Notes: generated by a model not told the origin, from the sequence alone. 64,000 nucleotides of DNA from an uncultured Actinomycetes bacterium (GCA_963704885.1 CAVPIB010000004.1:64001-128000); one strand, 5' to 3'; counted from the first letter of the stretch, positions 8,773-24,176 are shown. A program made the numbers and translations.

Positions 8773-8776
<4 letters not shown>
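7943..8776 (-). CDS. nfo: Endonuclease IV (AP endonuclease)
   Basis: IGAHV, QVFISNPRGW, HAPYLVN, CLDTCHLFAAGY, HANDS, DRH, LETP; GTG start overlaps the kinase stop (GTGA). Confidence 0.93.
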
Positions 8777-10656
<1,880 letters not shown>

Positions 10657-14179: not shown

Positions 14180-15081
14180 CGGAGGCGTTCGCTGTGACCG
14201 ACGAGGTTCGGTCGGCTCTCGCCGATGGGCTGGGCGTGGTAGCCCTTGAGACCAGCGTGATCGGCCAGGGTCTGCCCGCGCCCAGGAACTGGGAGTGCGT
14301 AGAACGGATGAGCGCCGCGATCAGAGCGGCGGGAGCCGTGCCCGCATGGATCGGCGTGGCTGACGGCTCGGTGGTGGTCGGGTTGACCCCAGAGCAGCTC
14401 CGGCGCTTCGCCGAACCGGGCAGGGCCTCGAAGGTGGCGCGCCGCGACTACCCGATGGCCGTGGCGAGCGGCGATCTGGGAGCCACCACGGTCAGCGCCA
14501 CCATCTGGGCCTCGGCCAAGGCTGGCATCGCCGTCGCTGCGACGGGCGGCATAGGAGGCGTGCACCACGGTGATGACCCTGATGTGAGCGCGGATCTCCT
14601 GGAGCTGGCGAGAACGCCTGGGTTGTTGGTGTGCTCGGGTCCGAAGTCGATCATCGACCCGGTCGCAACGGCTGAGAAGCTCGAAGAGCTCGGTGTGGCG
14701 ATGGTCGGATACGGCGTGGACCGTCTGCCCTTCTTCCTGGCCCGTGAGGCACCCGTCGAGCTCGAGCATCGCGTGGACACTCCCGGCGAGGCTGCCTCGC
14801 TCGCACGCGCAGTGGGAGCCCTGGGTGGAGGGAGCACGGTCCTCTTGTGCAACCCGATCCCCGCGGAGCACGCCATGGACGCCGCGGAGGTTGCCGCCGC
14901 GGCCCACGATGCCGAGGCCCGCGCCGAGCGCGAAGGGGTCCACGGCAAGGCGCGCACCCCGTTCCTACTCGCCGCACTCACGACCCTCACCGATGGTCGG
15001 AGTCTCGAGGCCAACCTGGCGCTCTTGGAGGACAACGCTCGTCTGGCAGGGCTGGTCGCCGCGGGAACCGCTAGTTCCTAG
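14176..15081 (+). CDS. psuG: Pseudouridine-5'-phosphate glycosidase
   Basis: VVALETS, GLP.PRN, GATTVSAT, ATGGIGGVH, DVSADL, TPFLL, SLEANLAL. Confidence 0.93.
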   Translation: MTEAFAVTDEVRSALADGLGVVALETSVIGQGLPAPRNWECVERMSAAIRAAGAVPAWIGVADGSVVVGLTPEQLRRFAEPGRASKVARRDYPMAVASGDLGATTVSATIWASAKAGIAVAATGGIGGVHHGDDPDVSADLLELARTPGLLVCSGPKSIIDPVATAEKLEELGVAMVGYGVDRLPFFLAREAPVELEHRVDTPGEAASLARAVGALGGGSTVLLCNPIPAEHAMDAAEVAAAAHDAEARAEREGVHGKARTPFLLAALTTLTDGRSLEANLALLEDNARLAGLVAAGTASS

Positions 15082-16124
15082 CGCAGCCAGGTCTGGATGA
15101 TGACCTTAGAGAAGTTCCAGCCGTACTTGAGGGACTTCGGCTTCTTCGACTTCCCGCCCTTACGGGCGAGGATGGTGATGGGGACCTCCACGATCCTAGC
15201 CCGGTGGCGCAGAGCCTCGATCAGGATCTCGCTCGTCCAGAACTGATCCTGCTCGAGCACCAGGTCTTCGAGCAGATCTGCCCGTGCCGCTCGGTAGCCG
15301 CTGGAGATGTCGGTCACCCGCGTTCCCGTCAGCATGGTCACCACCCTCGAGAAGAAGTGAACGCCAAGGTGACGGATGGTGGATTCCTTCTCGAAATCGC
15401 CCAACAAGCGGGAGCCGTTCACGTAGTCGGCCTCGCCACGCAGGATGGGGCCGATCATCACCGGGAGCTCCTCGGGAAGATGCTGTCCGTCTGCGTCCAG
15501 CGTCACCACTATGTCGGCCCCCAGCTTCAGCGCCACTTCGTAGCCCACCCGTAGGGCCAGTCCTCCACCCCGCCTGATAGGGAGCTCCGCCACGAACGCG
15601 CCGGCTTGGCGCGCGGTGTCGGCGGTCCGATCCTCCGACCCATCGGACACCACCAATGGGACGACGTGGTAGCCCTCCACCATGGACGGGATGGACTTCA
15701 CCACAGCCCCCACGTTCTCGGCCTCGTTGTAGGCGGGGGACACGGTGATCAGCCGCGGGCCCTCGGGCAGCGTCTCCGCCCGGGCCCAGTCGAACCGCTC
15801 CTGTCCCAATGCCTCTACCAACAGGCGGATGCTCCGTTCGTTCACGTCCGCGATGGACTGAACGCGCAACAGGAGCGCGAAAAGCACGAGGACCGCCACC
15901 ATCAGGACGAAGATCAACCGGCGGTCGTTCCCGGGGCCGAAGTTGAAGCTGGTGAAGAGCGGGTTGAAGAGGGACGGCGCCAGCGACAGAAGGATGATGA
16001 CCGTCGCGATCGCGCAACTGCTGATCATGTTCAGCCGGCTGATCTGCCGGCGTCGGTATCGTCGGATCGACGCCACGAAGAACGCGAGCGCCGCGATGAC
16101 TCCCAGGATCCGGAGCGCGGGCAT
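15078..16124 (-). CDS. DUF2304 membrane domain fused to a DPM1-like GT2 glycosyltransferase
   Basis: Three N-terminal TM helices; PAYNE, DGSEDRT, DADGQH, GSR, DISSGYRA, EVPI. Confidence 0.85.
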   Translation of the reverse strand: MPALRILGVIAALAFFVASIRRYRRRQISRLNMISSCAIATVIILLSLAPSLFNPLFTSFNFGPGNDRRLIFVLMVAVLVLFALLLRVQSIADVNERSIRLLVEALGQERFDWARAETLPEGPRLITVSPAYNEAENVGAVVKSIPSMVEGYHVVPLVVSDGSEDRTADTARQAGAFVAELPIRRGGGLALRVGYEVALKLGADIVVTLDADGQHLPEELPVMIGPILRGEADYVNGSRLLGDFEKESTIRHLGVHFFSRVVTMLTGTRVTDISSGYRAARADLLEDLVLEQDQFWTSEILIEALRHRARIVEVPITILARKGGKSKKPKSLKYGWNFSKVIIQTWLR

Positions 16125-16130
16125 CGGCGG

Positions 16131-17306
16131 CTACGCGCTGGGAGCGGCCACGCCCGGCCGCCACCGGTCCTGCGGCAAGATGTGATCCACGATCACCCGA
16201 TCACGGTAACGCGTGATCGTCGAGAACATCGACTCGATCAGCGTCTCGCTCAACAGATGTGGCTTGAGGCCCAGGTCCAGGAGCTTCGTGTGGGTCGCGT
16301 TGTAGTAGTGCTCCTCGGCCTCCACCCGGGGGTTGTCGATCGGATCGACCACGACATCGATCCCGACCTCGGCGCCGGCCTTCTGCACGTGCTCGGCGAG
16401 CTGCAGCACCGAGAATTGCTCGGTGAACTGGTTGAAGACGCGGTACTCGCCAGCCTCCGCGGGATGGGTGACGGCCAGCTCCACACACCGCAGCGTGTCG
16501 ACGATGTTCAGGTAGCCGCGGGTCTGACCACCCTTGCCGTAGACCGTGAGCGGGTGGCCGATCACGGCCTGTACGCAGAATCGGTTGAGCGCCGTTCCGA
16601 AAACGTCGTCGTAGTCGAAGCGCGTCATCAGGCGATCGTCCAGCGCGGTTTCCTCGGTCTCTATGCCGTAGACCACGCCCTGGTTGAGGTCGGTCGCACG
16701 CAGACCACGGACGCGACAGGCGAAGTGGATGTTGTGGGAATCGTGGACCTTGGACAGGTGGTAGTAGCTACCGGGGAGCTTCGGGAAGGGCAGGTAGTCA
16801 GATCGCCCGTTGTGTTCGATCTGGATGAAGCCTTCCTCGATGTCGATGTTGGGCGTGCCGTACTCGCCCATGGTGCCCAGCTTGACGAGATGGCATCCGG
16901 GGACGAAGCGTTCGATGGCGAAAAGCACGTTCAGAGTGTTGACCACGTTGTTCGTCTGGGTGAAGACCGCGTGCTCCCGATCCTTCATGGAGTAAGGGGC
17001 GGACGGCATCTCCCCGTAGTGCACGACCGCATCGGGCTGGAACTCGCGGAAGACCCGCTCAGTGACGGCCCAGTCACACAGGTCACCCTCGGTGTATCCG
17101 ATCTCGTGACCCGTGACCTGGTGCCATGCGGCGACCCGCTCGGGCAGACCGGGAAGGATGGGCAAGAGCGAATCCGTTCCCGCCTCCGCGTGGGCGCGCC
17201 GGCGGAGGTAGTCGTCGACCACGTGCACCTCGTGTCCACGGTTGGAGAACCTCATCGCGGTAGGCCACCCGAGGTAACCGTCGCCGCCCAGGATCAGGAT
17301 GCGCAT
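16131..17306 (-). CDS. sqdB: UDP-sulfoquinovose synthase
   Basis: GGDGYLGWPT, SAPYSM, HLVKLGTMGEYGTPNIDIEEG, YHLSKVHDS, TDLNQGVVYG, FNQFTE. Confidence 0.96.
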   Translation of the reverse strand: MRILILGGDGYLGWPTAMRFSNRGHEVHVVDDYLRRRAHAEAGTDSLLPILPGLPERVAAWHQVTGHEIGYTEGDLCDWAVTERVFREFQPDAVVHYGEMPSAPYSMKDREHAVFTQTNNVVNTLNVLFAIERFVPGCHLVKLGTMGEYGTPNIDIEEGFIQIEHNGRSDYLPFPKLPGSYYHLSKVHDSHNIHFACRVRGLRATDLNQGVVYGIETEETALDDRLMTRFDYDDVFGTALNRFCVQAVIGHPLTVYGKGGQTRGYLNIVDTLRCVELAVTHPAEAGEYRVFNQFTEQFSVLQLAEHVQKAGAEVGIDVVVDPIDNPRVEAEEHYYNATHTKLLDLGLKPHLLSETLIESMFSTITRYRDRVIVDHILPQDRWRPGVAAPSA

Positions 17307-17357
17307 GACATGCCTTTCAGAGCTCGTGGGAGTCGGTGGGATTGTACCGAGGAGGGC

Positions 17358-19421
17358 TCAGGACGCGCCCAGCGGTTCCAGCTGAGCCCGCAGAGCCTCC
17401 GCCTCCGTCACCGGGAGCCGGCAGACGAACCCCTCGCACACGTAGGCGGTCGCCGCTCCGTCGCGGGCCTCGCGGTCCCGCAGCAACGGGATGATCTGCT
17501 GTGCGTGCTCGTCACCAGGATGGCCGACGGCAAGCACCACGTTCGGACGGAAGACGCGCCCGGTGACCTCCTGGACCAGCGTTCGCGTGTCCGGGGAGGC
17601 GAGATCGCCCACTATCGCCACCTCCCGAGCCGGGCCGACATATAGGTCGAGCGCCGACAGCGCATGGCCGAATCCGGTCGGTGCGCCGGCCATCGCGTCG
17701 CGGACCAGCCGCAGCGCGGAGAGTCCCGCGGTCTCGTAGCCCGCGTCCCCCGTCAGGAGCGCCAGGCGGAGCAAGACCTCGGCGGCCACCGAGTTGCCCG
17801 ATGGAACGGCGTTGTCGTACAGCTCCTTCGGACGCAGGACCAGCCGCTCGGCGTCGGATGCCGTCTGGAAGAAACCACCTCGTTCATCGTCGCGGAACGA
17901 TCGGAGTAGGTCATCGGCCAACACCCGCGCCTGCTCGAACCACCGGAGCTCGAACGTCGTCTCGTACAACGTTAGACACGCCGACGCCATCAAGGCGTGG
18001 TCGTCGGCGAAGCCCGGCCTGCCCGCCACGCCGTTACGCCACGAGCGCAGCAGCCGGCCTTGGTCGTCCCGGAGGTGGGTTAGCACGAAGTCGGCGCATC
18101 GTTCGGCTGCGCTCACGAAGGCGGGTTCGCCGAACGCCCGCCCCGCTTCGGCGAACGCACCGATCGCCATCGCGTTCCATGCCGTTAGCGCTTTGTCGTC
18201 CGTCGCCGGTCGGACTCGCCCCTCGCGTATCTCGAAGAGCGTCGCGAGAGCGTCGGCGACCTCCTCGACCAGCTCATCGGGATCGAGCCCTTCAGCCGCG
18301 GCGACCTGAGCGATCGGTGCCGGCCGCCACAGGACATTCGTCCCTTCCCAGTTGCCCTCGGGCTTGGCGCCCAAGGCATGGGCGACGGGTTCGCCGACGA
18401 GTGGGGTCAGCTCCTCCCAGGTCCAGGTGAAGAACTTGCCCTCGACCCCTTCGCTATCGGCGTCTTGGGAGGACCAGAAGGCTCCCTCTGGGTGCTGCAT
18501 CTCGCGGAGGAGGTACTCGAAGGTCTGGGTCGCCACGCGCCGGTACCGGTCATCGTGCGTCACCTGCCAGGCGCGCGTGTAGAGACGTGCCAGCTGCGCG
18601 TTGTCGTAGAGCATCTTCTCGAAGTGCGGGACATGCCAGGTCTCGTCGGTCGCGTACCGCGCGAAACCGCCTCCCACGTGGTCGTAGATGCCTCCGTCGG
18701 CCATCCGATCGAGCGAGGTCGTGACGATCTCCATCGCGGGGGCCCAGTCGCGTAGGGCGCAGCGAAGCACGAACTCCAGGGTCATAGGTTGCGGAAACTT
18801 GGGGGCGCCACCGAAGCCGCCCCACCGGCTGTCGAACGCCTGATGCAGCCGAGCGAACGCCCCGCGGGTGACCGAATCATCCAGCGGCTCGTGCGACGGC
18901 GCGAGCTGTCCCACCTTCCCGATATGCGCCGAGATCTGGGCCCCGTGCTCCACGACCTCCTCTCGCCGTTCCTGCCATGCCTCGGCGATGCCTCCGAGCA
19001 CCTGGCGGAACGACGGGAGCCCGTGTCGAGGAACCGGTGGGAAGTACGTTCCGGCGAAGAAGGGCTCGCCCGTCGGCGTCAGGAAGGCCGTCAGCGGCCA
19101 CCCACCGCTCCCGCTCAAGGCCTGCGCCGCGTCCATGTATATGGCGTCCAGGTCCGGTCGCTCCTCGCGATCCACCTTGATCGAGACGAAGTGCTCGTTC
19201 ATCAGCGCTGCCGTCCGTTCGTCTTCGAATGACTCGCGTTCCATGACGTGGCACCAGTGACAGGCTGCGTAGCCGATCGACAGCAGGATCGGCCGATCTT
19301 CGCTCCTCGCCCGCTCCAGTGCCTCCGGGCCCCAGGGGTACCAGTCCACCGGATTGTGTGCGTGCTGCAGCAGGTAGGGGCTGGTCTCGTCCGCCAACCG
19401 ATTCGCCCGCCTGGTGGTCAT
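17358..19421 (-). CDS. YyaL/SPATA20-family thioredoxin-domain protein (DUF255)
   Basis: [45 protein letters not shown]. Confidence 0.95.
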
Positions 19422-19446
19422 GGCGACAGTGTCTCGCGAACGCTCT

Positions 19447-19474
19447 TCAGGCGGGGCGGGGTCCGTGCCGATGC
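19447..19474 (+). promoter_or_regulatory. Putative sigma28/WhiG-type promoter
   Basis: TCAGG-N15-GCCGATGC, 15 nt before the ATG at 19490. Confidence 0.55.
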
Positions 19475-19489
19475 AGTCACAGAGAGAAG

Positions 19490-20152
19490 ATGACAGAAGA
19501 TATCCGCGTGCTCGTCGTGGACGAGAGCCCCGGCCGAACGGAGGGGCTGATCGGCTGCATGCCGGGGGACGGTGTGCAGCTCCTGGGCAGTGTGTCGGAT
19601 GCCGGCGCGGCCCTTCGGATCCTGGATGCCGACCCGATCAACCTGATCCTCGTCGACCTGGATCGATCGGGCGGGGACGGGATCGAGACCGTCCGGATCA
19701 TCCGCGAAGGAGCGGAACGGACGCGGGTCCTCGGCATCACGCAGGAGCACGGTCCCGATCTGGCTGCCGGCGCGCTGGCTGCCGGAGCGTGCGGCGTCGT
19801 TTCGCCGGAACCAGACGGCGAGAGCATGTCATCGGCGTTCCGTCGCGCGATGGCGGGTGAGCTGGTCCTGCCGGCGGTTCACCTCTCGAGCCTGGTCGAC
19901 CGGCTCCGTGGGAACAAGGCAGCGGCGGCCGCCAGCCGGCTGGACTTCCTCACCGGCCGCGAGAGCGAGATCCTCCGGGCCCTGGCCGACGGGAACTCCA
20001 CCCTGGAGATCGCTCGTTCACTAGGGATCCGACCCATGACGGTCCAGAGCCATGTGAAGAACATCCTGGCGAAGCTCGGGGTGCATTCGAAGGTCGAGGC
20101 GGTCACGCTGGCGTGGCGCCTGGGGCTCGGGTCCGCCACGCGCAGCGCATGA
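19490..20152 (+). CDS. NarL/LuxR-family response regulator, atypical (conserved Lys absent)
   Basis: IRVLVVDE receiver; LTGRESEIL...[18 protein letters not shown]. Confidence 0.9.
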
Positions 20153-20176
20153 GCCCGCGGGGGTAGCCTTCCCGGG

Positions 20177-20848
20177 ATGATCGAAGAGGGGTCGGCCCGG
20201 GCAGCCAGGCTGGTCGTGGCCGACGCCCATCCGATCGTCCGCCGTGCCGTACGGATGTCCTGCGAGTCGACGCCCGGGTTGGAGGTCGTCGGCGAGGCTG
20301 ATTCGGTGCCCGAACTGCTCGCCGTTTGCGAGGAGCGGCGCCCGGATGTCGCGATCGTGGATATCGCGCTCCCCGACGGGTTCGAAGGGATCCGGGGGTT
20401 GACCGAGCACAAGCTGGCCGGGGCCATCGTCGTCCTGACGGATCGAGTCGAGGGGTCGGCCGTGATCGGGGCGTTGAGGCTCGGTGTGGAGGGATACCTC
20501 GTGAAGGCGTCTGCCCTCGCCACCGTAGGACCGCAGATCCGTCGGGTTCTGGCCGGCGAGCGCGTGATCTCGCCCGAGGTCGAGCAGATCGCCGTGGCCG
20601 AGCTGGGGCGGTTCGCCCGATCGGCTCGCGAGGGCAGCGAGGTTCGCGCGTCCCTCACTCCAAGGGAGTACGAGATCCTGCTGCTGGCCAGCCGAGGGCT
20701 CACCATGCGCCAGATGGCGACGAGGCTGGGCATCTCGCCTCGCACCGTGGAAACGCACATGGCCAAGCTCTATCGCAAGCTGGAGGTCCGCACTCGCGTG
20801 CAGGCCGTGTCCCGGGCCGTCTCGTTGGGCCTCATCGAGCTTCGCTGA
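20177..20848 (+). CDS. NarL/LuxR-family response regulator
   Basis: DVAIVDI, VLT, GYLVK; LTPREYEIL...TVETHMAKLYRKL HTH; TAGCCT -10 7 nt before the ATG. Confidence 0.92.
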   Translation: MIEEGSARAARLVVADAHPIVRRAVRMSCESTPGLEVVGEADSVPELLAVCEERRPDVAIVDIALPDGFEGIRGLTEHKLAGAIVVLTDRVEGSAVIGALRLGVEGYLVKASALATVGPQIRRVLAGERVISPEVEQIAVAELGRFARSAREGSEVRASLTPREYEILLLASRGLTMRQMATRLGISPRTVETHMAKLYRKLEVRTRVQAVSRAVSLGLIELR

Positions 20849-20870
20849 TCGGTTAACCGAGGGCGCCCGC

Positions 20871-20898
20871 TCAGTCCCGGAGGCTCATCGGCCGATAG
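20871..20898 (+). promoter_or_regulatory. Putative sigma28/WhiG-type promoter (leaderless)
   Basis: TCAGT-N15-GCCGATAG, exactly 7 nt before the ATG at 20906. Confidence 0.65.
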
Positions 20899-20905
20899 TG
20901 GAGGC

Positions 20906-21616
20906 ATGAGCAAACGTCCCGTCAACGGGTCGGCATCCACGCCTGCCCAACGTCGACGCCTAGGGGTGATCGTCGTGGACCCGCTGCCGGTCGTTCGGGC
21001 GGGTTTGGGTCTGCTTATCGACGACCGCCCCGACATGGAGGTCCTGGCGGAAGCCGGTACAGCGGACGAGGGGATCGAGGCGATCCAACGTGTTCGCCGA
21101 AGCATGGTCGTCGTCCTGGTCGGGCTGGGCCTCTCCGGTGACCACGACGCGTATTGGCTGATCCGAACGCTCCGCCAGCGTTACCCAACGCACGCGATCC
21201 TGGGATGCGGGGCGAACGCGGATCCCACGGCGATCAGCCGGGCGCTCTTCGTCGGGGCAGACGGCTTCGTGGACAAGAACATCGATCCGGTCGACTTCCT
21301 TCAGGCTCTGAGGAAGGCGGCCACCCGCGAGATGGTGCTGGCGACGCCGACGTCGTCGGTGGTGGGCCAGATCGTAGAAGGTATCGATCGCAGGCGCGAG
21401 GTCGAGGTGAAGCTCACCGATCGCGAACGCGAGGTCTTGGTGGTAGCCGCTGAGGGGCTCACGGCCCGCCAGATGGCCACCCGCCTCGGCGTGCGGGAAC
21501 GCACCATCACGACTCACCTCGCCCGTATCTACGGCAAGCTGGGCGTCGGCAGTCGGTTGGCGGCGATCCGGATGGCCGCCCAGTCCGGCCTCGTGAGCGT
21601 CGGCGCCCCCGAGTAG
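20906..21616 (+). CDS. NarL/LuxR-family response regulator, atypical (phosphoacceptor Asp replaced by Gly)
   Basis: VIVVDPLP, VVLVGLGL, GFVDK; LTDREREVL...TITTHLARIYGKL HTH. Confidence 0.9.
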   Translation: MSKRPVNGSASTPAQRRRLGVIVVDPLPVVRAGLGLLIDDRPDMEVLAEAGTADEGIEAIQRVRRSMVVVLVGLGLSGDHDAYWLIRTLRQRYPTHAILGCGANADPTAISRALFVGADGFVDKNIDPVDFLQALRKAATREMVLATPTSSVVGQIVEGIDRRREVEVKLTDREREVLVVAAEGLTARQMATRLGVRERTITTHLARIYGKLGVGSRLAAIRMAAQSGLVSVGAPE

Positions 21617-22170: not shown

Positions 22171-22965
22171 ATGAGGTCTCGAGGTCTGGTGGTCGCCCTC
22201 GCCGTGCTGCTCGCCGTGATGGCAGCCGCGGCGGTCGTCCTGTACACGAACGGCATCAAGAAGGAGGCGGAGTCCGGCGGTGAGCTGACGACCGTGATCG
22301 TCGCCACCCAGAGCATCCCCGCCGGCACGAGCCTGGACGCCCTGATCGAATCGGGTGCCTTCAAAGAGTTGAACGTCCCGACGGATGCCGTCGTCCAGGG
22401 CGCGGTCACGGGCCTTTCGGAGCTCCGCGGACAAACGATCACCACGCCGATCGTGGCCAACCAGCAACTGGCGACATCCAGCCTCTCGAGCGGTGAGCAG
22501 GTCGAGGGCGGCATGCTCGGCATCTCCAAGGGTCACGAAGCCGTCACGATCAAGCTCAATGCTCCGCAGGGCGGTGATGGCCATATCCAGCGCGGCGACA
22601 ACGTCACGGTGTTCGCCACTTTCACCGGCGTCTCCGTGATCAAGGGCACGCTGGATCAGTTGACCAACCCTGCCGCCACGGGCACCACCGACCGGCAGGA
22701 CCTCCCCGACTTCACCGCCGTGCTCATCCCGACGGTGCGTGTCTTGGATGTCTCGAACCCCGGCGTGGACGAGAACGGCGAGCCCACGGGAGACGCGGTC
22801 ACGATCACCCTGGACCTCCTCCCGAAGGACGCGGCCAGCCTCGTTTACGCGCAAGAGAACGGGAAGATCTGGCTGGGCCTCCTGCCTCCGGGCGAGGAAG
22901 GACAGCAGTTCCCCGCGGTGCAGGTCCCGGTCCAGCTCCTCCTTGGGAAGAAGGCAGCCGTATGA
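22171..22965 (+). CDS. cpaB: Flp pilus assembly protein CpaB/RcpC
   Basis: N-terminal TM, SAF domain VIVATQSIPAGT, GHIQRGDNVTV, VRVL. Confidence 0.9.
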   Translation: MRSRGLVVALAVLLAVMAAAAVVLYTNGIKKEAESGGELTTVIVATQSIPAGTSLDALIESGAFKELNVPTDAVVQGAVTGLSELRGQTITTPIVANQQLATSSLSSGEQVEGGMLGISKGHEAVTIKLNAPQGGDGHIQRGDNVTVFATFTGVSVIKGTLDQLTNPAATGTTDRQDLPDFTAVLIPTVRVLDVSNPGVDENGEPTGDAVTITLDLLPKDAASLVYAQENGKIWLGLLPPGEEGQQFPAVQVPVQLLLGKKAAV

Positions 22966-24176
22966 CAGAAGCCAGCGTCGTCGCCGTCGGGACGCCGCAG
23001 TCCTTCCGCCAGCAGATCGCCAGGGCTCTGGAAGTGGAGCCCGAGGAGATCGGATGGGCGCAGTCCGCCACGGTGGCAGAGGAGCTCCTGATCAACGCCT
23101 TCAGCGCCATCGACGTGCTGGTGCTGTCGCCTGAAGTGAAGGAGCCGGACGCGCTGGGCCTCGCCGAATTCGTGGGGCGCCAGGCGCCGGGAACCGCCAT
23201 CGTCCTGGTACGCGACCACACATGGAACGGCTTGCTGCCGGCCGCTATGCGCGCGGGCATCCGCGATGTGGTCGACATGACCCAAGGGGCCGAGGAGCTC
23301 CGCGATGCAGTGGAACGGGCCGTGGCATGGGCCACGAACCTCCGGTCCGTAGGCGGTCAGACGGCCGAGTCTTCCATGCAGCAGCGTGGCCACATCCTTT
23401 CGGTGTTCTCGTCGAAGGGTGGCAGCGGCAAGACGTTCCTGACCACCAACCTGGCGGCGGCGATCGCCGACGTCACGGGACAGGACACGGCCGTCGTCGA
23501 CCTGGACACCGATATGGGCGACGTCTTCACCTACTTCGGCCGCGAGCCGATCGCCCGGGTGGACGATCTGATGGGTATCGGCGAGGGGGCCGACCACGAC
23601 AAGATCCGGGAGATCGGGGTGCCGTTCGGCGACCACCTGTGGGGTTATGGATCACCGCCGGATCCGGCGGCCGAGCCGCCCGCAGGCGAGGCGGTCGGCA
23701 AGTTCCTGAGGACGCTCCGTGCCGACTTCTCCTACGTCGTGGTGGACGCGTCGGTCGACTACTCGGACTCGGCGCTCGTCTGCTTCGACCTGTCCGACGC
23801 GATCTGCCTGGTGACTCCGCTCGACGTCGTAGGGGTCAAGCACCTGTCGAAGGCTCTCGACACGCTCCTCACGATCGGGTTGCCGCGTGAGCGGTTCCGG
23901 GTCGTCCTGAACCGAGCGGACAGCAAGGTGGGTCTCGACTCGACCGACGTGGAGCGGGTCATGAAGATCACGGTCGACGCCATGATCCCATCCAGCCGGT
24001 TGGTGCCCACGGCGTTGAACAAGGGCCGTCCCGTCGTCTTGGACGAGCCGACCTCGGACGTCTCCCAGGCCGTGCGGCACCTGGCGGCCAAGTTCACCGG
24101 GCAGTTCGGGTCGGCGATCGAGACCAACGGCGAAGGCAAGGCCGTCAAGAAGCGCAAGCGGTTCTCGAGGACCTAA
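22962..24176 (+). CDS. cpaE: Pilus assembly ATPase CpaE/TadZ (receiver-like + MinD-like)
   Basis: AMRAGIRD, KGGSGKT, VDLD..MGD, VLNRAD. Confidence 0.9.
   Translation: MTEASVVAVGTPQSFRQQIARALEVEPEEIGWAQSATVAEELLINAFSAIDVLVLSPEVKEPDALGLAEFVGRQAPGTAIVLVRDHTWNGLLPAAMRAGIRDVVDMTQGAEELRDAVERAVAWATNLRSVGGQTAESSMQQRGHILSVFSSKGGSGKTFLTTNLAAAIADVTGQDTAVVDLDTDMGDVFTYFGREPIARVDDLMGIGEGADHDKIREIGVPFGDHLWGYGSPPDPAAEPPAGEAVGKFLRTLRADFSYVVVDASVDYSDSALVCFDLSDAICLVTPLDVVGVKHLSKALDTLLTIGLPRERFRVVLNRADSKVGLDSTDVERVMKITVDAMIPSSRLVPTALNKGRPVVLDEPTSDVSQAVRHLAAKFTGQFGSAIETNGEGKAVKKRKRFSRT

Follow-up and report, generated by a model that had tools for sequence, protein, structure and literature searches.

What does a gene for uridine diphosphate (UDP)-sulfoquinovose synthase do in an actinobacterium when its neighbor is a glycosyltransferase (GT) resembling those that attach sugars to lipid carriers? 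The question is raised by a stretch of DNA of 64,000 nucleotides (nt) from an uncultured Actinomycetes bacterium (GCA_963704885.1 CAVPIB010000004.1:64001-128000), referred to as the window, along whose full length all window coordinates are counted. An earlier note on this DNA had described a pair of genes at 15078..17346, sqdB and a fusion of a DUF2304-like domain with a family 2 GT (GT2), separated by a gap of 6 nt, and had suggested that the pair loads sulfoquinovose onto a lipid carrier. Both open reading frames (ORFs) were found at these coordinates on the minus strand, and direct reading of the sequence returned the 6-nt gap. The analysis described here indicates that the pair probably makes polyprenyl-phosphate-sulfoquinovose, a sugar donor for extracytoplasmic glycosylation, and predicts that the sulfoquinovose goes to the cell surface and not into the plant-type sulfolipid. 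The pair is laid out as follows.

16131-17306, minus strand: sqdB, UDP-sulfoquinovose synthase (P0002, 391 residues), from the SQD1 match and NF041015
16125-16130, minus strand: intergenic gap of 6 nt between sqdB and the GT2 gene, read directly as TAG, CCGCCG, ATG
15078-16124, minus strand: DUF2304-GT2 fusion (P0001, 348 residues), predicted polyprenyl-phosphate sulfoquinovosyltransferase, from Pfam and fold
15807-16115, minus strand: DUF2304 (GacJ/Rv3632-like) membrane domain, residues 4-106 of P0001, from PF10066, hydropathy and the structural model
15081-15755, minus strand: GT-A catalytic domain, residues 124-348 of P0001, from alignment A1 and the alignment with dolichyl-phosphate mannose synthase (DPMS)

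The GT2 fusion lies downstream of sqdB, 6 nt after its stop codon TAG. Residues 2-384 of P0002 match the structures of Arabidopsis SQD1 (1qrr and 1i24; residues 3-384 of 1qrr) with an E-value of 3e-161 and an identity of ~65%. The NCBIfam model of UDP-sulfoquinovose synthase (NF041015) gives P0002 489.9 bits, short of the curated 575-bit cut-off, and the runner-up family reaches 45 bits. In a control run, 12 of 14 named genomes, Synechococcus elongatus among them, matched this model and one of the 14 scored above the cut-off, indicating that the cut-off is narrow. Thr145, Tyr182, His183 and Lys186 have identical residue numbers in P0002 and SQD1 and do not vary across alignment A2, which also contains a cyanobacterial SqdB and more distant homologues; Thr145, Tyr182 and Lys186 are the catalytic residues of SQD1, and His183 is specific to SQD1. 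With a full-length SQD1 match and these four residues kept, P0002 is by its sequence a close homologue of SQD1 and, as the earlier note had claimed, a UDP-sulfoquinovose synthase.

A second, divergent SqdB-like family was also observed, 42-46% identical to P0002 and scoring ~333 bits on NF041015, with Thr145, Tyr182, His183 and Lys186 kept. Its genes occur at L108:4904-6121(+) and L109:554-1750(+), in G079, G107 and G259 and in other genomes, and in some genomes directly upstream of a GT2 fusion; they encode putative UDP-sulfoquinovose synthases.

The second protein of the pair, P0001, has two Pfam domains, DUF2304 (PF10066) at residues 4-106 with 33.0 bits (cut-off 25.5) and Glycos_transf_2 at residues 129-288 with 59.8 bits. 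Hydropathy analysis showed three membrane segments, at residues 2-20, 31-49 and 70-88. An AlphaFold model built with 39 homologues (predicted local distance difference test score, pLDDT, 89.2; predicted template modeling score, pTM, 0.81) has three N-terminal helices (residues 2-24, 30-48 and 66-109), in agreement with hydropathy on their number, followed by a GT-A domain. The DxD motif of this domain, DAD at residues 210-212, is invariant in alignment A1, and the C-terminal helix ends with TWLR. The residues invariant in A1 comprise Pro130, Ala131, Glu134, Asp161, Asp165, Asp210, Asp212, Gly213, Gln214, Ser238 and Arg239, and further Asp272, Arg278, Lys327, Lys328 and Trp346-Arg348. Structural comparisons of the model using Foldseek returned DPMS (5mlz) first, followed by ArnC and, further down, GtrB. 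The best match of P0001 in the PDB by phmmer was also 5mlz (1.6e-13), with Pyrococcus furiosus DPMS aligned over residues 124-328. The best NCBIfam scores were 100.2 bits for AglJ (cut-off 325), 89.5 for the haloarchaeal dolichyl-phosphate-hexose transferase (cut-off 375) and 87 for PpgS (cut-off 370), and ArnC gave 37.3 (cut-off 529). Since the best families and folds are AglJ, PpgS and DPMS, yet the scores remain below the cut-offs, P0001 appears to be a polyprenyl-phosphate-sugar synthase in kind, with no named equivalog. Sequence and model together place it in a distinct GT2 subfamily of the DPM1/ArnC/GtrB/PpgS kind; Pfam, hydropathy, AlphaFold and Foldseek thus bear out the description of a DPM1-like GT2 fused to a DUF2304-like domain with three membrane segments. 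Polyprenyl phosphate would be its acceptor, as judged from the family and from the linkage or fusion to GT-C-type transferases in other lineages, and we infer from the genomic context that UDP-sulfoquinovose is its donor.

Elsewhere in the genome of the bacterium (G000), a 773-residue ORF at C4:255508-257829 (+) carries a C-terminal DPM1-like GT2 domain ~31% identical to P0001 and may be the organism's own polyprenyl-phosphate-mannose synthase. Its architecture resembles that of the mycobacterial Ppm1 fusion.

The pathways to sulfoquinovosyldiacylglycerol (SQDG), as described in the parts of the literature cited here, run from SqdB to SqdX in cyanobacteria (SQD1 to SQD2 in plants), or from SqdB through SqdD and SqdC in Rhodobacter and Sinorhizobium (PMC13436972; bioRxiv 10.1101/2022.08.18.504050). 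The first enzyme is the same as in the pair, forming UDP-sulfoquinovose from UDP-glucose and sulfite. However, the transferase of the pair is a DPM1-like GT2 rather than a GT4 or GT8, and its predicted acceptor is polyprenyl phosphate rather than diacylglycerol or glycerol. The assembly to which the window belongs (3.0 Mb in 20 contigs, 97% complete, searched minus 16,000 bases) contains a single sqdB and a single DUF2304. An SqdX orthologue was not found in it: against the SqdX-type GT4 of Anabaena (L080), the top-scoring protein reaches 62.6 bits and 27% identity, whereas comparisons between true SqdX-type proteins give 310-372 bits. Likewise, Glyco_transf_8 (GT8, the SqdD family) had no match in the genome, and no search was made for SqdC. 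The earlier note had seen neither sqdX nor sqdD/sqdC in the window; for sqdX and sqdD this holds genome-wide. Judged by these matches, the SqdX-type GT4 and SqdD-type GT8 transferases of the sulfolipid pathway are lacking in the genome.

Conservation of the pair was analyzed in 41 genomes of the same order, from 8 families and 26 genera (G008, G029 and G037, flagged as unpublished, included). The full GT2 fusion is present in 37 of them, sqdB is present in the same 37, and the other four have neither gene. In 36 of the 37, sqdB is followed by the adjacent GT2 gene on the same strand, and in the remaining one (G030) the two are convergent. The spacing between the two genes in co-directional loci of relatives ranges from -28 to 32 nt. 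The sqdB gene is read in two or three pieces at G004:C3:567850-569932, G011:C15:115418-116591 and G028:C1:204235-205406, and the GT2 gene is also split in G004; these splits are frameshifts, pseudogenes or assembly errors.

A scan made with sqdB only yielded 80 loci from Actinomycetota, Chloroflexota, Acidobacteriota, Cyanobacteria and others. A homologue of P0001 (>150 bits) lies within 6 kb of sqdB in 42 of these loci, and fragments of one in two more. The arrangement differs between lineages: sqdB and GT2 are co-directional in the window's own clade, in Gaiellaceae and in one Nitrospina metagenome-assembled genome (MAG), and divergent, with GT2(-) before sqdB(+), in Solirubrobacterales MAGs. 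In L033, L035 and L043, two paralogous PMT_2 GT-C genes separate GT2 from sqdB, and the same GT-C genes abut sqdB in the truncated loci L039, L072 and L075. The neighborhood analysis that the earlier note had proposed thus shows a linkage that is conserved across the order and recurs in other actinobacterial lineages with different gene orders. In loci that lack a P0001-type GT2, the partner of sqdB is an SqdX-type GT4 in Anabaena, Caldilineaceae and Chloroflexaceae, and of GT2 or GT21 types in Acidobacteriota.

The pair was also observed outside Actinomycetota, in L008 (a MAG labeled Planctomycetaceae) and in L064 (the Nitrospina MAG, on a long branch). The SqdB of L008 is 85% identical to that of the window, and L008 nests in the window's own clade in the tree, which suggests mis-binning or a recent transfer. 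In Acidobacteriota and a MAG labeled 'delta proteobacterium', sqdB adjoins a Glyco_transf_21 or another GT2, not SqdX (L056:7252-8406(-), L073:7221-8408(+) and L045:5001-5756(+)); these enzymes may be further sulfoquinovosyltransferases.

Co-occurrence in the phylum was tallied by hand in 301 genomes at least 85% complete (the unpublished G041, G057, G085, G154, G204, G254 and G265 among them), counting GT2 at E-values up to 1e-35 and SqdB or SqdB-like proteins at E-values up to 1e-50. GT2 is present in 80 genomes and SqdB or SqdB-like proteins in 83; 74 genomes have both, 9 have SqdB only and 212 have neither.

The neighbors of the GT2 gene in other lineages may point to the fate of its product. 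In the Rubrobacteraceae-like family f19, the clusters L092-L094 contain a sulfatase, an epimerase of the short-chain dehydrogenase/reductase (SDR) type, the GT2, a Wzx-like Polysacc_synt protein directly 3' of the GT2, DUF6541 proteins, sqdB and a TMEM260/PMT_2-like GT-C. In L108 and L109, the SqdB-like gene stands directly before the GT2 gene, and in L108 a TMEM260-like GT-C lies on its other side. In three actinobacterial families, the proteins beside sqdB are larger, with 734-771 residues (L099:4897-7149(-), L100:2743-4947(+) and L101:1794-4109(+)). They consist of an N-terminal polytopic domain of ~480-500 residues and a C-terminal GT2 domain orthologous to P0001, with no DUF2304 part. Their N-terminal domain is similar to PMT in L099 (E-value 8e-8) and L100 (9e-4), with no match in L101; hydropathy analysis gave nine segments per protein, and in L100 one of them falls inside the GT2 part. 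Fusion of the GT2 to a GT-C-like domain is what would be expected if a GT-C consumes the product of the GT2.

In a quick tree, the f19 GT2s lie apart from a clade of 49 rows (support 96) that holds the GT2s of the window's order, Solirubrobacterales, Gaiellaceae and family f9 and the GT-C-fused forms, suggesting that GT2 donor specificity may differ between clades. Most rows were ascertained via sqdB, and the tree is therefore no measure of how frequently GT2 occurs without sqdB. A homologue from Rubrobacter calidifluminis is 69% identical to the f19 GT2. The f19 clusters L092-L094 and L104-L111 also encode a sulfatase-family protein of ~495 residues and one or two paralogous polytopic DUF6541 proteins of ~680-700 residues.

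From the gene identities, the domain architecture and fold, and the conserved linkage and co-occurrence, a route of four steps can be proposed. SqdB would form UDP-sulfoquinovose from UDP-glucose and sulfite in the cytoplasm, a step that is well supported by the sequence comparisons; a CysH-type reductase encoded in the genome is a possible source of the sulfite. At the inner face of the membrane, anchored by the three-helix DUF2304 domain, the GT2 would then transfer sulfoquinovose from UDP-sulfoquinovose to polyprenyl monophosphate, yielding polyprenyl-phosphate-sulfoquinovose; its family, the fusion and the conserved context suggest this step. The product would be flipped across the membrane, and a GT-C-type transferase would add the sulfoquinovose to a cell-envelope polymer or a surface protein. 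Flipping and final transfer, for which no dedicated enzyme was found in the genome of the bacterium, are drawn from other lineages by analogy. As a prediction, the loading of sulfoquinovose onto a lipid carrier put forward in the earlier note is supported, and all comparative tests that were run agree with it.

Several observations weigh against this proposal, and three other explanations were considered. All NCBIfam scores of P0001 are far under the curated equivalog cut-offs, and mycobacterial GpgS, an enzyme with a soluble acceptor, is as close to P0001 in fold as ArnC by Foldseek. By analogy with GpgS, whose structures are among the best fold and sequence matches, the GT2 could make a soluble sulfoquinovosyl compound such as sulfoquinovosyl-(phospho)glycerate. 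However, the sequence match to GpgS is limited to the N-terminal half of P0001 (residues 114-234), the NCBIfam score for GpgS is 38 bits vs. 87-100 bits for AglJ and PpgS, and P0001 carries a fused membrane domain of three helices, the fusion partner in other lineages being a GT-C. A soluble product is thus very improbable.

The pair has no linked GT-C or flippase in the window or the genome of the bacterium, nor in the examined loci of its order. The genome has four GT-C candidates on two contigs, as follows.

C4:907543-909081: GT-C candidate of the PMT type
C4:1026974-1028554 and C1:535198-536442: two GT-C candidates of family GT87
C1:534032-535201: PIG-V-like GT-C candidate

A hidden Markov model of 11 sqdB-linked GT-Cs from Solirubrobacterales had no match in the genome at E-values up to 1. 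Similarly, phmmer searches with the f19 TMEM260-like GT-C, DUF6541 protein, Wzx-like protein and a 698-residue protein gave no match in the genome, and the PIG-V-like GT-C of G186 was the only query that matched one of its GT-Cs (56 bits). Phyletic profiling covered two of the four candidates, both GT87s. Each of them occurs in 40 of the 41 relatives, including all four without sqdB; the profile therefore does not discriminate and gives the proposal no support. The genome search suggested in the earlier note, for sqdX, sqdD and GT-C partners, thus returned no SqdX or SqdD and four GT-C candidates, none of them linked to the pair.

A bare two-gene unit of this kind, with no GT-C or flippase linked to it in the genome and the examined loci of the order, could instead make a terminal membrane lipid. 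The GT2 would then be a non-homologous replacement for SqdX or SqdD that transfers sulfoquinovose to diacylglycerol, a phospholipid phosphate or another acceptor, with no flipping and no GT-C. The varied lipid-type GTs that pair with sqdB elsewhere (the GT4 SqdX of Anabaena and Chloroflexota, and the GT2/GT21 of Acidobacteriota) are consistent with such a replacement. However, all named relatives of the GT2, in sequence and in fold, use polyprenyl or dolichyl phosphate, and orthologous GT2s elsewhere are linked or fused to GT-Cs, which are consumers of polyprenyl-phosphate-sugars. Moreover, DUF2304 partners are known only alongside such synthases in the cited part of bioRxiv 10.1101/180810. 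A terminal sulfoquinovosyl lipid is therefore unlikely.

The remaining observations concern the donor. An SDR epimerase gene is part of every f19 GT2 cluster, and many of these clusters (L104-L107, L110 and L111) lack an adjacent sqdB. In G121, sqdB adjoins an SqdX-like GT4 (scoring 310 bits against the SqdX type of Caldilineaceae; L116:6173-8518(+)), and the cluster of DUF2304-GT2, Wzx, DUF6541 and SDR genes (L110) lies elsewhere on the chromosome. The SDR in every f19 GT2 cluster and the pairing of sqdB with a GT4 in G121 suggest that the f19 GT2 could use UDP-glucose or another UDP-sugar. In the phylum sample, 6 of the 80 GT2-bearing genomes have no SqdB-type gene, and nearly all genomes of family f9 carry the two genes, mostly far apart or on different contigs. 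It is conceivable that the GT2 of the pair, too, loads glucose or another common sugar, that its adjacency to sqdB reflects shared regulation or history, and that UDP-sulfoquinovose is used by an unlinked transferase. Sulfoquinovose is glucose modified at C6, and a gluco-specific enzyme might therefore accept both sugars. However, the two genes are adjacent in 37 of 37 genomes of the order that have them and are jointly lost in four; both are present in 74 genomes of the phylum sample vs. 6 with GT2 only, the linkage outlasts several rearrangements, and the genome has no other candidate sulfoquinovose transferase of known type. Common-sugar loading is thus quite unlikely for the pair. Two limits apply to the counts for the order that support transfer of sulfoquinovose to polyprenyl phosphate: the four genomes with neither gene are 70, 81, 89 and 97% complete, and related genomes are not independent observations.

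The proposed route resembles known three-component glycosylation systems. In the cited part of bioRxiv 10.1101/180810, GacJ and Rv3632 both belong to DUF2304 and bind or stimulate the GT2s GacI and PpgS, respectively, and fusions of GT2 and DUF2304 are known. The pair is similar to the GacI/GacJ/GacK/GacL system of Streptococcus pyogenes, which makes the N-acetylglucosamine (GlcNAc) side chain of the group A carbohydrate, in combining a GT2 polyprenyl-phosphate-sugar synthase with a three-helix DUF2304 partner (bioRxiv 10.1101/180810). The Rubrobacteraceae-like loci have genes for a Wzx-like flippase and a GT-C next to the GT2 gene, in the manner of gacK and gacL. The differences are that the predicted donor is UDP-sulfoquinovose instead of UDP-GlcNAc, that DUF2304 is fused N-terminally, and that the genome of the bacterium has no linked flippase or GT-C. 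PpgS (Rv3631) and Rv3632 of mycobacteria synthesize polyprenyl-phosphate-N-acetylgalactosamine, according to the same part of that source (bioRxiv 10.1101/180810). They likewise consist of an actinobacterial GT2 and a DUF2304 partner, and PpgS is among the best NCBIfam matches of P0001 (87 bits). However, the cut-off for PpgS is far higher, at 370, the predicted sugar is different, and the domains are fused rather than encoded by separate genes. The GT-C supplied by PpgS and Rv3632 is Rv3779, which places galactosamine on arabinogalactan. As proposed, the pair would follow the three-component logic of GacI/GacJ/GacK/GacL, PpgS/Rv3632/Rv3779 and GtrA/B/C with a new sugar.

Agl3 of Sulfolobus acidocaldarius makes UDP-sulfoquinovose for N-glycans, and its gene adjoins agl1, the gene of a membrane-bound glycosyltransferase (PMC4388408). 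In both cases sulfoquinovose is destined, or predicted to be destined, for a surface glycoconjugate and not a lipid, and the synthase gene stands beside that of a membrane glycosyltransferase. However, the Agl3 system is archaeal, its sulfoquinovose is thought to be added from UDP-sulfoquinovose to a dolichol-linked glycan, and the cited part of PMC4388408 describes no polyprenyl-phosphate-sulfoquinovose intermediate. The low-salt glycan of Haloferax volcanii was considered as a precedent for dolichyl-phosphate-sulfoquinovose and rejected: the cited part of PMC3892788 describes a sulfated hexose bound to dolichyl phosphate, with a sulfation, attributed to Agl7, on the lipid-linked sugar, and thus no established dolichyl-phosphate-sulfoquinovose. 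Literature searches linking sulfoquinovose to DUF2304 found nothing. Sulfoquinovose combined with lipid-carrier or GT-C terms gave, among the matches listed, archaeal work only and no bacterial route, and combined with the names Thermoleophilia or Rubrobacter gave no work mentioning sulfoquinovose among the matches listed. No published description of a lipid-carrier route for sulfoquinovose was found in these searches; the pair would represent a known kind of system with a new sugar.

The expression of the pair may start in the short region upstream of sqdB.

17307-17357, minus strand: 51-nt region 5' of sqdB with TACAAT and GAAAGG, read directly

TACAAT, which the earlier note had read as a -10 element, is present at 17341-17346 (-), 35 nt before the ATG of sqdB, and GAAAGG is located at 17313-17318 (-), 6 nt before the ATG. 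However, a scan of 14800-17700 for a consensus promoter with two hexamers gave 0 sites. A promoter 5' of sqdB is therefore possible and unproven, the call resting on one hexamer. The gene upstream of sqdB encodes a DUF255 thioredoxin-like, six-hairpin protein (17358-19421); since it lies on the same strand and only 51 nt away, transcription could also read through from it into sqdB. This gene was rejected as a third member of the module: it stands beside sqdB in 0 of the 80 sqdB loci of other genomes, 90%-identical relatives included, and in relatives a class-V aminotransferase takes its place. The module thus consists of sqdB and the GT2 gene only. Downstream and convergent to the GT2 gene are psuG, a pfkB kinase gene, thiL and thiE. 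Farther away, the window contains three tandem genes of LuxR-type response regulators at 19319-21616 (+), followed at 22171-24176 (+) by Flp/Tad pilus genes (RcpC/CpaB and a TadZ-like ATPase), and, at 8773-10572 (-), a PknB-like Ser/Thr kinase with four PASTA repeats.

Beyond the window, we regard as evenly poised the wider claim that polyprenyl-phosphate-sulfoquinovose is a real, undescribed lipid-linked donor and that sulfoquinovosylation of the envelope is common in deep-branching soil and sediment Actinomycetota (the window's own order, Solirubrobacterales, Gaiellaceae and the Rubrobacteraceae-like family), with several GT-C families (PMT_2-like, TMEM260-like and perhaps DUF6541) acting as sulfoquinovosyltransferases. 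In the cited part of PMC13436972, phototrophs (through SQDG) and a few archaeal N-glycans are taken as the sources of sulfoquinovose, and this is the starting point for models of its cycling. If the proposal is true, abundant non-photosynthetic actinobacteria of soil and sediment would be a new guild of sulfoquinovose producers and a large non-phototrophic input to the environmental pool of this sugar, and their sulfoquinovose-bearing polymers would be new substrates for sulfoglycolysis. A strongly acidic sulfonate sugar would join those delivered by three-component glycosylation systems, and a function would be assigned to a large family whose members now bear only the annotation 'glycosyltransferase family 2' or 'DUF2304 family protein'.

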